Shown here: positions 12,001 through 18,000 of the stretch, in pieces
Numbering within the stretch: the first letter of the stretch is position 1
How the letters are laid out: each line of letters opens with the position of its first letter
From: a virus
Taxonomy: Duplodnaviria > Heunggongvirae > Uroviricota > Caudoviricetes
Reading direction: 5' to 3' (one strand)
Virus record (IMG/VR): IMGVR_UViG_2531839440_000004
Location: 1 to 33,438 of that record
DNA length: 33,438 nt
Made by a program: the position numbers

Positions 12001-15000
12001 AATCAGATAGAACCGTGTACGGCACTGGCAAAATCCCTTGAGCATGATGCTGAATACACGACGCGAAAAGGTCTGCTGATATACAAAATCTGGAATGAGA
12101 ATTTAACTCGCGACCCTGATTTGGTGATGTTGCGTTCCGGTGAATTTTCTAAATTACCAGTGCGGGTTTCATTTTGTCCGTTCTGTGGTGAAAGTCTGAA
12201 AACGTGGGAGAACAGAAATGAATGAAATTAGAGAAATACCAGTAGTACGTGATGAATATGGCTGCTGGACGCATCCTGAATATGAAAAATTCTGTGATGG
12301 TAGAGAACTTATTTCAACGAAAGAGTTTAACGCCTGGATGGAGGAAAAGGTAATGACTCCAACTTATTGATAGTGTTTTATGTTCAGATAATGCCCGATG
12401 ACTTTGTCATGCAGCTCCACCGATTTTGAGAACGACAGCGACTTCCGTCCCAGCCGTGCCAGGTGCTGCCTCAGATTCAGGTTATGCCGCTCAATTCGCT
12501 GCGTATATCGCTTGCTGATTACGTGCAGCTTTCCCTTCAGGCGGGATTCATACAGCGGCCAGCCATCCGTCATCCATATCACCACGTCAAAGGGTGACAG
12601 CAGGCTCATAAGACGCCCCAGCGTCGCCATAGTGCGTTCACCGAATACGTGCGCAACAACCGTCTTCCGGAGCCTGTCATACGCGTAAAACAGCCAGCGC
12701 TGGCGCGATTTAGCCCCGACATAGCCCCACTGTTCGTCCATTTCCGCGCAGACGATGACGTCACTGCCCGGCTGTATGCGCGAGGTTACCGACTGCGGCC
12801 TGAGTTTTTTAAGTGACGTAAAATCGTGTTGAGGCCAACGCCCATAATGCGGGCTGTTGCCCGGCATCCAACGCCATTCATGGCCATATCAATGATTTTC
12901 TGGTGCGTACCGGGTTGAGAAGCGGTGTAAGTGAACTGCAGTTGCCATGTTTTACGGCAGTGAGAGCAGAGATAGCGCTGATGTCCGGCGGTGCTTTTGC
13001 CGTTACGCACCACCCCGTCAGTAGCTGAACAGGAGGGACAGCTGATAGAAACAGAAGCCACTGGAGCACCTCAAAAACACCATCATACACTAAATCAGTA
13101 AGTTGGCAGCATCACCGGCAGAGTTTAATGAATAGAAAAGAACTTGCCAGAAATGTGATTTATAGTGATTATGGAGTACAGCACCCCGACTTTAATAGGC
13201 TTTCGACGCGATTCCCTAGCGTATCTGCCAGCGTCAGATACTCTGGAGATAATGACTTTTGGGTATTTCGAGGAAGAGTAGCTAATCGCTTTGGTTATGA
13301 ACAATATGGTAAACATAGTGAGGATATTCTTGCTCATCGAGAATATTCAGGGCCTACATTCTGTGCGGGAGATAGAGACATAGAATATTATGCAAACGAG
13401 TATCAAGCCTACAAAGCCAATCCCTCTGGTAACTATAAATTTGGTAGCCCAGAGGTATGGCGTAGGATTGGGCAAAACCATCACATAACTAAGGTTATTG
13501 AGCAACTCGCCACTCTTTACGGGCTTTAAGTTTAACTCGAACAGCTTCACGAAGCTCGCCAACATCCATACTATTGGCGAGTTTTGACCATAAGACGCGT
13601 TTAGGTTTATTTTTCAAATTCTGTAGCTCCCCTACATCACTTAATAGGGAAAGCAATTCATCTTTCCAAAGAAGCATTGTTAAGGAAAGTTTGTCCACTT
13701 GTGGATTCAACTTGCTAGTTCGAATTGTTTTTAAATGGATACCTTGCCGTGCACCTTGCGTAACTTGCTTTATCCCCCACCATGATGGAACTATGCTTAA
13801 AGCATCATAAAGATGGCAATCAGAGACAACCAACGTTACTTTATCCATCACTGATGAGTAATGTTGCACCTGCGCTGGTAATCTGAGCAAGTTATCACTC
13901 TTGCTCTTCAACTCATAACCATGTATAAGCCCATTGATCACTGCTATATCAGCTCTGCTAGCCCCTAGATTCATCGTAAACTCATCAATGATTAGGGTGT
14001 CAGGATCTTTATGATGATCTCTCAGAATCTTGGCATGCACAGCCTTTCTTACATCAATGTCTCTCATACCATAGTTGCGCTTTCATTGACTCTCTCAAGC
14101 CATGATTCTATATCATGGTTCGCATGAATGCCATTTGATATGACCAGTGGTTAAACATTGCACAGAAAAGTGGATGTGTATTTTAACAAAAGCAATGACG
14201 GCTAACCATGTTGGTATGTCGATAAAATGTTTCAACGTAAGCATTATCTGTTCCGCCCTTTCAGACGGCCTCCTGATGTTCTGAGGGTGCAGAATCCCTC
14301 CGGTTAAGGATTTAATAAAAATCGTTTCTGATTTAAATCTTCAGTATTTAGTTGTTAGTCGGTTTATAGCCTTTATGCTTCGGCCTTATTTCTCAGCCAT
14401 ACACAAACCGGGCCATCTTCGGTGTCATGTATTGAACCAATAAACCATCCATTGCCCTCTGGTCGTTCCGGTTCCCATGCAGAAATATCAGCATCACACG
14501 CATCAAGGTCAGCACATCCTTCATCTCTGAAGCAGAGGACGTATTGAAGATTATTTTCCTCCGGTGATGCTGCCAACTTACTGATTTAGTGTATGATGGT
14601 GTTTTTGAGGTGCTCCAGTGGCTTCTGTTTCTATCAGCTGTCCCTCCTGTTCAGCTACTGACGGGGTGGTGCGTAACGGCAAAAGCACCGCCGGACATCA
14701 GCGCTATCTCTGCTCTCACTGCCGTAAAACATGGCAACTGCAGTTCACTTACACCGCTTCTCAACCCGGTACGCACCAGAAAATCATTGATATGGCCATG
14801 AATGGCGTTGGATGCCGGGCAACTGCCCGCATTATGGGCGTTGGCCTCAACACGATTTTACGTCACTTAAAAAACTCAGGCCGCAGTCGGTAACCTCGCG
14901 CATACAGCCGGGCAGTGATGTCATCGTCTGCGCGGAAATGGACGAACAGTGGGGCTATGTCGGGGCTAAATCGCGCCAGCGCTGGCTGTTTTACGCGTAT

Positions 15001-18000
15001 GACAGGCTCCGGAAGACGGTTGTTGCGCACGTATTCGGTGAACGCACTATGGCGACGCTGGGGCGTCTTATGAGCCTGCTGTCACCCTTTGACGTGGTGA
15101 TATGGATGACGGATGGCTGGCCGCTGTATGAATCCCGCCTGAAGGGAAAGCTGCACGTAATCAGCAAGCGATATACGCAGCGAATTGAGCGGCATAACCT
15201 GAATCTGAGGCAGCACCTGGCACGGCTGGGACGGAAGTCGCTGTCGTTCTCAAAATCGGTGGAGCTGCATGACAAAGTCATCGGGCATTATCTGAACATA
15301 AAACACTATCAATAAGTTGGAGTCATTACCAACTCTGCCATAAAATCCACTCGATTCGAGGTTGAGAATATAGACCAACAGAAATATCACTGAGATCTGT
15401 AGGAAATGAACCCCCAGAAAGAATCACTTTTCTGTATTCATTGAGGTGCGCCAGATTGTTTATCAATCCCATTGCCAAAGTATATAGTTCGCCGGAATTA
15501 AGTTTATCCTCGGTTAACTCATCTCTTAAGTCAATAATTATATCAATATTTGATAAAGGAATTCCCAGATGATTAATGTAATGCGTTATTAATTGTGGGT
15601 TAACCAGATCTAACGTGGTTAATCTCAAGCATATTTCATTCTGCATTAATTCATCAATCGCTCTTTTATAGTTAGATGGGCGAGTTGGTGAACTGACAGG
15701 AATAACTCTTATCCCCATATCTCTAACTTGATTAACCGCATTTATTATAGGGTAATGATCTTCAGGAGAAATAAAATGCTCTTCAATTAATAATCCATCA
15801 ATATAAACACCTTGCATATCTGAGCAAGATTTTGAGACTTTCTTTCCGAACTCTATAAGAGTCTCGTTATAACTCTTTAAGGCAATACCTGAATCAGGGT
15901 CAATTGGCACTGGTTCAATTTCGAGTAATGGCAAAATTTTTGATTTCTTTTCAATGGATAGCTGCGATAAAGCTGATAACTCAGAACGTTTCGCTTTCAG
16001 AATAGGAATATATGAAATTGTCATGTTAATACCTTATACAGAATCAATTAACAATTAATGGTTCTTCGGACATTGAAATTTATATCGCAAAAATTGGCAA
16101 ACTCTCCTCGACTACTCACTTGTGGGTATCCTGGCGTAAAAGGAATGACTTGGCAATACCCGGTGTGATCATAAGTCATTGAAAATGATCATTTTTATCA
16201 GTCTTTCTTCCATGATGAATGCTAATGCCATTTGATTTGTTGAGGTGAAAACTGTTAAAAATCAAAACGATGTAATTGAAATGAACGTTCGGTAGCATTC
16301 ACGCTTTAAATGTTTCTTTTGTGCTGATTGGATGAATTTTGGTCACTTATGATGAGAGATGTTGCAGGAAAAGAAGTTGGCATTGATCTATTGGATAGTT
16401 AGAATTGCTGCGGGTGCTTGAGGCTATCTGCCTCAGGCATGAACACCAAAAGGCAGATAGAGAAAAGCCCCAGTTAACATTACGCGTCCTGCAAGACGTT
16501 TAACATTAATCTGAGGCCATATCTATGCGACACATAGAGATTAGCCTCTTACGGACCGAAAGGTCAAGGAGAAGCAGGCTATGAAGCAGCAAAAGGCGAT
16601 GCTAATCGCCCTGATCGTCATCTGTTTAACCGTCATAGTGACGGCACTGGTAACGAGGAAAGACCTCTGCGAGGTACGAATCCGAACCGGCCAGACGGAG
16701 GTCGCTGTCTTCACAGCTTACGAACCTGAGGAGTAAGAGACCAGGCGAGGGAGAAATCCCTCGCCACCTCTCATGTGTCAGGCATCCTCAACGCACCCGC
16801 ACTAAACCCGCTTCGGCGGGTTTTTTGTTGCGTGCTGAATGCGCAGGGTGAAAAATAACCATATATTTGATTATATACACAACAAAAAATAAAAGTCATT
16901 GTACCTGCACATTAAATAATCAAATATACAGCGTGAAATAAATATTTTTCAGATTAATATTTTTGTCTCTATGTGGATATAACCGTTTGTACTTATAAAC
17001 TCGGAGGCATCGTGGAAAAAATAAAGAAACTATTTAGTTGCAAATACGCAGTCATACGTCGTGATGACCTGTCAGTTATAGTCGAAATGGATTACTTCCC
17101 TGAACCCCCAAAATCAATGATGTATCGTAATGGTCGAAAGGCAATTTTTTTACCGATGAGGGTAAGTGACATTATGGGAAATGATAAACTGCTGGATGAA
17201 TTGCGAGTCAGAGCATCCTGTTAGTATTGGCATTAATTCTGGTATACTACATAACGGGCTGAACACCCATTCTACTGCGCCAGCGGAGAACTACGATGGC
17301 GCATATACAACTGGTCAAACAAACCTCTTCCGGATTACTTCTCCCGGCGACGCCGGAGAGTTGCGATTTTTTGCATCAAATCAAAATAGGTGAGTGGATA
17401 CACGCAGACTTTAAGCGTGTGCGTAACTACGCATTCCACAAGCGTTTTTTCAAACTCCTGCAACTGGGATTCGATTACTGGGCTCCGGTCGGTGGGGCGA
17501 TCACGCCTCGCGAACGAAAACTGGTATCAGGCTTCGTTGATTACCTGTGCGAATCAGTAGGTCGGGAACACACTCCAGCCCTGAGTGATGCCGCAGAGCA
17601 ATACCTTAATACAGTTGCGACATGCAGAACCCGGGATACGGCATTGCTAAAGTCGTTTGACGCTTTCCGCGAGTGGGTAACCATTCAGGCCGGATTTTAC
17701 ACCGAGCATATTTATCCTGATGGTAGTCGTGGGCGCAGGGCAAAATCTATCGCATTTGCGAACATGGACGAAACCGAGTTTCAGCAGGTTTATAAATCTG
17801 TACTGAATGTGCTGTGGAACTGGATCCTGTTCCGTAAATTTTCCTCTCCGGAGGAAGTCGAAAATGTGGCCGCGCAGTTACTGGAGTTTGCGTAATGGTG
17901 GATTTACGTAAAGCGGCGCGGGGGCAGATGTGCACCGTCAGAATTCCTGGCTACTGCAATCACAATCCCGAAACTTCTGTGCTGGCGCATTACAGGCTGG

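Follow-up and report, generated by a model that had tools for sequence, protein, structure and literature searches.

An inversion bounded by insertion sequences (ISs), with exchanged target duplications, is a textbook rearrangement. The signature of inverted target duplications has been described for IS26 and Tn4401, including for an ancestor with its own direct duplication (He et al. 2015, PMC4471558), and a study of intrachromosomal IS1 transposition found that the donor copy was kept in 210 of the 210 mutants tested (176 + 34), which was interpreted as replicative transposition (PMC12428005). Component C of the PD-lambda-2 defence system is related to a P4 antitoxin and is necessary to defend against lambda-vir (Vassallo et al. 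2022, PMC9519451). Here we describe a clear instance of this type of rearrangement, with no new mechanism, in a 33,438-bp stretch of viral DNA (Caudoviricetes; IMG/VR record IMGVR_UViG_2531839440_000004, positions 1 to 33,438; hereafter the window). Within a Rac-type lambdoid prophage at ttcA, the segment 13117-14562 is inverted between two oppositely oriented copies of IS1, and two prophage genes are split by the same elements.

The window carries four copies of IS1, each 768 bp long, which were found by repeat search and direct reading. All four have the imperfect terminal inverted repeats GGTGATGCTGCC... and ...GGAGTCATTACC and contain the 91-amino-acid (aa) and 167-aa open reading frames (ORFs) of insA and insB′, with the InsB′ frame open in each; compared with the IS1A element of strain K-12, they carry one to three differences. 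Copies 2 and 3 bound 13117-14562 in opposite orientation. Copy 2 (12349-13116, minus strand) reads from the right to the left inverted repeat (IRR to IRL) on the plus strand and has intact insA and insB′ frames, and copy 3 (14563-15330, plus strand) reads from IRL to IRR.

The nucleotides that abut these two elements form a reciprocal pattern. The target 9-mer of site A, GGAGGAAAA, lies against the left end of copy 2 (outer copy, 12340-12348), and its inner copy lies against the left end of copy 3 as the reverse complement TTTTCCTCC (14554-14562). For site B, the target 9-mer AACTCTGCC abuts the right end of copy 3 (outer copy, 15331-15339), with its inner copy at the right end of copy 2 as the reverse complement GGCAGAGTT (13117-13125). 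The left flanks of copies 2 and 3 are therefore exact reverse complements of each other, as are the right flanks. Each of the 9-mers occurs once per strand in the window, solely at these IS1 boundaries, and the probability that two specified 9-mer pairs would match by chance is 4^-18, or about 1.5e-11. The reciprocal 9-mers were established by direct reading of the flanks; the 792-nucleotide (nt) inverted repeat returned by the repeat search overshoots the IS1 ends through tolerated mismatches only and is not evidence for them.

Comparison with relatives that lack the IS1 copies gives the ancestral order. When the window is aligned with Escherichia coli E275a (sequence L002), only 13117-14562 matches on the opposite strand (L002 15886-14441, 99.93% identity), and both outer flanks are colinear. 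This inverted segment is 1,446 bp of native prophage DNA. We reversed the rearrangement in silico by reverse-complementing 13117-14562 and cutting out both IS1 elements, each with one of the two copies of its 9-mer. The resulting 2,801-nt reconstruction differs from E275a by two mismatches and no gaps, which is the best agreement among the 76 complete E. coli genomes that hold the un-inverted, IS1-free order and to which it aligns as a single piece at 100% coverage. E275a carries GGAGGAAAA and AACTCTGCC once each, at empty sites (site A, L002 14441-14449; site B, L002 15878-15886). Because the 1,446-bp segment lies in the opposite orientation, each IS1 in the window is flanked by one copy of the 9-bp target of each site, in reverse complement.

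The reconstruction also rejoins both split genes in frame. The first encodes a hypothetical prophage protein of 103 aa. Its 5′ fragment (12218-12348, plus strand; 43 codons and 2 nt) is cut by IS1 copy 2, and its 3′ fragment, which includes the stop codon, lies at 14373-14562 on the minus strand; joining 12218-12348 to 14553-14373 (131 + 181 nt) yields an uninterrupted ORF of 103 aa and a stop, whose product differs from E275a WP_001353219.1 at one residue. The second gene belongs to the beta family. Its 5′ fragment (15331-16024, minus strand; 231 codons and 1 nt) and its 3′ fragment (13117-13529, plus strand; 134 codons and the stop after the 9-mer) combine, as 16024-15331 and 13126-13529 (694 + 404 nt), into an uninterrupted ORF of 365 aa and a stop. 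The rejoined protein is 100% identical to the beta family protein of E275a and matches Pfam Beta_protein (PF14350) over model positions 1-341 of 342 (E 3e-52; 178.6 bits, cutoff 27). An earlier note on this DNA, made from the sequence alone, had placed the IS1 boundaries, the reciprocal flanks, the inversion of 13117-14562 and the in-frame rejoining of the two genes as described above and had proposed comparison with strains lacking the IS1 copies; all of these points were borne out, with no misread boundary.

As the window now stands, the pieces of the beta-family gene lie on opposite strands 1.8 kb apart, and the 103-aa gene is likewise split. Between them, inside the inverted segment, an intact gene for a 190-aa protein of the sce7726 family (phage P4 cII-like; 13495-14067, minus strand) retains its upstream intergenic region and is reversed relative to its neighbours. 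Because both split genes are interrupted by IS1 in either orientation, the flip restores neither of them and does not form a functional switch.

The inverted arrangement was found in none of the 5,426 complete RefSeq E. coli genomes, which were searched with the real sequence and also with a version from which IS1 had been removed and in which the inverted order was retained. The same arrangement, with all four IS1 copies, is present on a 923-kb contig of GCA_000356725.1, which is colinear with the window over 20,699 nt with three mismatches. ORFs that span the junctions were found in 13-19 contigs per look-up, from about 20 assemblies and read sets (NCBI, Logan, ENA and JGI assemblies) that apparently represent one lineage. 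These are mostly short-read drafts, in which contigs end at each IS1; the junctions read identically whichever way the segment lies, so such short contigs are uninformative on orientation. Among the matches listed, the junction ORFs all come from this IS1-fragmented lineage, except for one unrelated, IS-free contig (L033).

How the inversion arose is a separate question, and here the four copies of IS1 differ in informative ways. Copies 2 and 3 mismatch at IS1 positions 262 (A/T) and 357 (C/T). Copy 3 (262T, 357T) is identical in sequence to copy 1 (7783-8550, minus strand), and copy 2 (262A, 357C) agrees with K-12 IS1A at both positions, differing from that element at position 444 only; copies 2 and 3 are therefore not each other's closest relatives. 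The difference at position 262 recurs in the independent drafts of the lineage, as read from their inner-segment contigs, with A on the J2 side (copy 2) in seven of eight and T on the J3 side (copy 3) in all eight. On balance, we favour a history in which two slightly different IS1 variants would have entered by independent, simple insertions, 1.4 kb from one another and in opposite orientation. Each would have generated a 9-bp target duplication of its own, and the interval would then have been flipped when the inverted 768-bp copies underwent homologous recombination, which presumably depended on RecA. The earlier note had read this route from the flank pattern. The route remains the preferred one, modestly favoured by the differences between copies 2 and 3, but the flank pattern is not diagnostic of it, as intramolecular replicative transposition leaves the same footprint.

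Several observations weigh against two insertions followed by recombination. The IS1-internal variants are inconsistent between assemblies: position 262 of copy 2 (window 12855) and position 357 of copy 4 (window 18705) differ between the window and GCA_000356725.1 and among the lineage drafts, and position 357 is inconsistent among the drafts. Such variable states fit ongoing gene conversion among the IS1 copies, which would speak for recombination between them, or consensus noise in repeats, and the differences between copies 2 and 3 could themselves have arisen by later gene conversion or be noise in the consensus. A history of one insertion and a single intramolecular transposition is more parsimonious, with two events giving the same flanks, and two independent insertions within 1.4 kb require a local hot spot. 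Signs of a hot spot are present, as 11 kb of the window hold four copies of IS1 and the beta-family gene of strain PEC209 has an independent IS1. In favour of the route, simple insertion does occur in the region, where copy 4 is flanked by a direct 9-bp duplication, AAAGCTGAC. Among the matches listed and the complete RefSeq genomes, there is no relative that has both IS1 copies un-inverted or only one of them; because no such intermediate was found, the three-event history is inferred and not observed.

The strongest competitor, which we consider possible but less probable, is a one-step duplicative inversion. In this scenario, one IS1 that already occupied site A or site B with a normal 9-bp duplication would have undergone replicative transposition in trans into the other site of that molecule, giving a second, opposite IS1 copy, a flipped 1.4-kb interval and a new 9-bp duplication that is inverted, with one copy at each IS. 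The predicted product, d-IS-t′-...-d′-IS′-t, is the flank pattern observed. Only two events are needed, the short distance of 1.4 kb suits an intramolecular attack, and the presence of an IS1 without a target duplication (copy 1) fits non-canonical IS1 events in the region. However, newly made sister copies should be identical, and copies 2 and 3 differ at positions 262 and 357, reproducibly so at 262 (7/8 drafts); with copy 3 matching copy 1 and copy 2 matching K-12 IS1A at both positions, they are not sister-like. The route could be saved only if a third IS1 copy had additionally donated a gene-conversion tract of 96 bp or more. The non-identity of the copies therefore weakens duplicative inversion, although later gene conversion could account for the differences.

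The other two IS1 copies in the window have different histories. The 9-bp (sometimes 8-bp) target duplication that is expected of IS1 is seen directly at copy 4, is recovered at copies 2 and 3 after un-inverting, and is absent at copy 1. Copy 4 (18349-19116, plus strand) is an ordinary simple insertion that splits a late-region prophage gene of the DUF1133 family. Copy 1 has no target duplication in its flanks (7774-7782 and 8551-8559). In 19 complete E. coli genomes only 9 bp, ATGGAAAAA, separate these flanks and make up codons 1 to 3 of a small gene that follows ydaT. Because ATGGAAAAA is absent from the whole window, copy 1 replaces exactly 9 bp instead of duplicating 9 bp. An empty allele without the 9 bp was found in no genome, and loss of the duplication through exchange with the other three IS1 copies was rejected, as none of their flanks has ATGGAAAAA. 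Possibly, IS1 inserted at a neighbouring 9-mer and an IS1 adjacent micro-deletion came afterwards.

The beta-family gene has been disrupted elsewhere as well. In E. coli PEC209 (NZ_CM168015.1; L001 6001-6768), an independent IS1 lies at a different site in this gene and is flanked by an 8-bp repeat, GGAATTCC, and in the IS-free Logan contig L033 (SRR33281812) 1 nt is deleted at gene position 628. The repeated inactivation may have arisen because the DNA is an AT-rich target for IS1 (~35% GC) or because the gene is selected against. A broader account would read the whole region as a record of intramolecular replicative IS1 events, with a one-step inversion at copies 2 and 3, an insertion followed by an adjacent micro-deletion at copy 1, and losses of the beta gene that were perhaps selected to disarm a prophage module of the beta/cII type; we regard this as unlikely.

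That the inversion is an assembly artefact seems quite improbable. Two simple insertions with direct 9-bp duplications could be presented as an inversion if the 1.4-kb segment were mis-oriented between near-identical inverted repeats, and with the four junctions identical in both orientations and the lineage drafts broken at every IS1, reads shorter than 768 bp cannot discriminate between the two. The orientation is nevertheless the same in the window and in the 923-kb contig of GCA_000356725.1, two different assemblies that each run through the four IS1 copies. The phase at position 357 leans weakly the same way: the J3 and J4 sides both have T (L025 and L004) and on the J2 side L028 and the two long assemblies have C, a pattern consistent with J3 being paired with J4 as in the inverted order, but L025 is an exception, with T on the J2 side. 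Finally, we can dismiss the notion that the 2,982-bp unit 12349-15330 is an incoming IS1 composite transposon, which an IS1-bounded segment superficially resembles, or a programmed switch with a site-specific invertase, as inverted repeats bounding an invertible segment might suggest, because the outer flanks GGAGGAAAA and AACTCTGCC form no direct duplication, the inner DNA is native and contiguous with the flanks in the 76 genomes, the neighbourhood lacks an invertase gene, and the two genes are broken by IS1 in either orientation.

The assignment of the locus to a Rac-type lambdoid prophage at ttcA comes from the annotation of E275a, in which the gene order is intR, xisR, ralR, recT, recE, kilR, ydaT, replication genes, DUF1627, DUF977, the 84-aa gene, the 103-aa gene, the sce7726-family gene (190 aa), the beta-family gene (365 aa, convergent), hokD and DUF1367. 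The window also encodes the small RNA (sRNA) RalA (1557-1735), DicF RNA (7275-7326), a sok antisense RNA (16412-16583), and tRNA-Thr(TGT) and tRNA-Gly(TCC) (19857-20010), which are typical cargo of Rac/Qin-type prophages; none of them lies within the inverted segment. Near 7625-7629, about 1.5 kb is absent relative to E275a and B4103-1, comprising the 5′ part of ydaT along with the immunity region and its repressor-like and cro-like helix-turn-helix (HTH) genes. This breakpoint has no flanking IS and a 5-nt overlap. Because its left side is only ~90% identical, the junction may be a mosaic boundary instead of a recent deletion.

The two genes at the heart of the rearrangement resemble parts of known defence systems. 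The product of 13495-14067 matches NCBIfam NF033832 (sce7726_fam) at 191.1 bits (cutoff 70) and the PADLOC 'cll' model (E 2.4e-28), and the rejoined beta protein matches PADLOC PD-Lambda-2_C (E 1.7e-41). The four local proteins that were scanned (84-aa, 103-aa, sce7726 and beta) include no HigB-like partner, Xre-peptidase or gop homologue, and PADLOC gave no match for the 84-aa and 103-aa proteins. Of the parts that make up a complete PD-lambda-2 system (HigB-like A, Xre-peptidase B, and C) or a gop-beta-cII system, only C-like/beta-like and cII-like proteins were detected among the four; as the other components were undetected in these proteins, we treat the likeness to defence systems as context only. 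At least partial matches to the 2,801-nt region containing the sce7726/beta pair are found in 2,393 of the 5,426 E. coli genomes.

Exchanged target duplications allow a rearrangement of this kind to be reversed exactly in silico, but the footprint alone cannot separate recombination from intramolecular transposition. In this prophage, the event destroys a gene of the P4-beta/PD-lambda-2C type, which may have a role in phage defence or toxin–antitoxin control. The four junctions could also serve to mark one IS1-rich E. coli lineage.

Set beside the described systems, the locus shares features with each. With phage P4 beta/cII and PD-lambda-2 it has in common a full-length Beta_protein that matches PD-Lambda-2_C and a neighbour that matches 'cll', although the beta and sce7726 genes are convergent here and not in one operon. 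Duplicative inversion by IS26 and Tn4401 (PMC4471558) arrives at the product seen here, with an identical inverted duplication footprint; it leads one to expect an identical donor and new copy, whereas here there are two differences and each haplotype is common to another IS1 copy. Compared with classic IS-mediated inversions, this one, for which recombination is presumed, covers a very small interval (1.4 kb) within a prophage. As in IS-mediated inversion by homologous recombination, however, two full-length inverted copies are accompanied by reciprocally exchanged duplications, and relatives, in the form of 76 complete genomes, keep the ancestral un-inverted order with empty sites.

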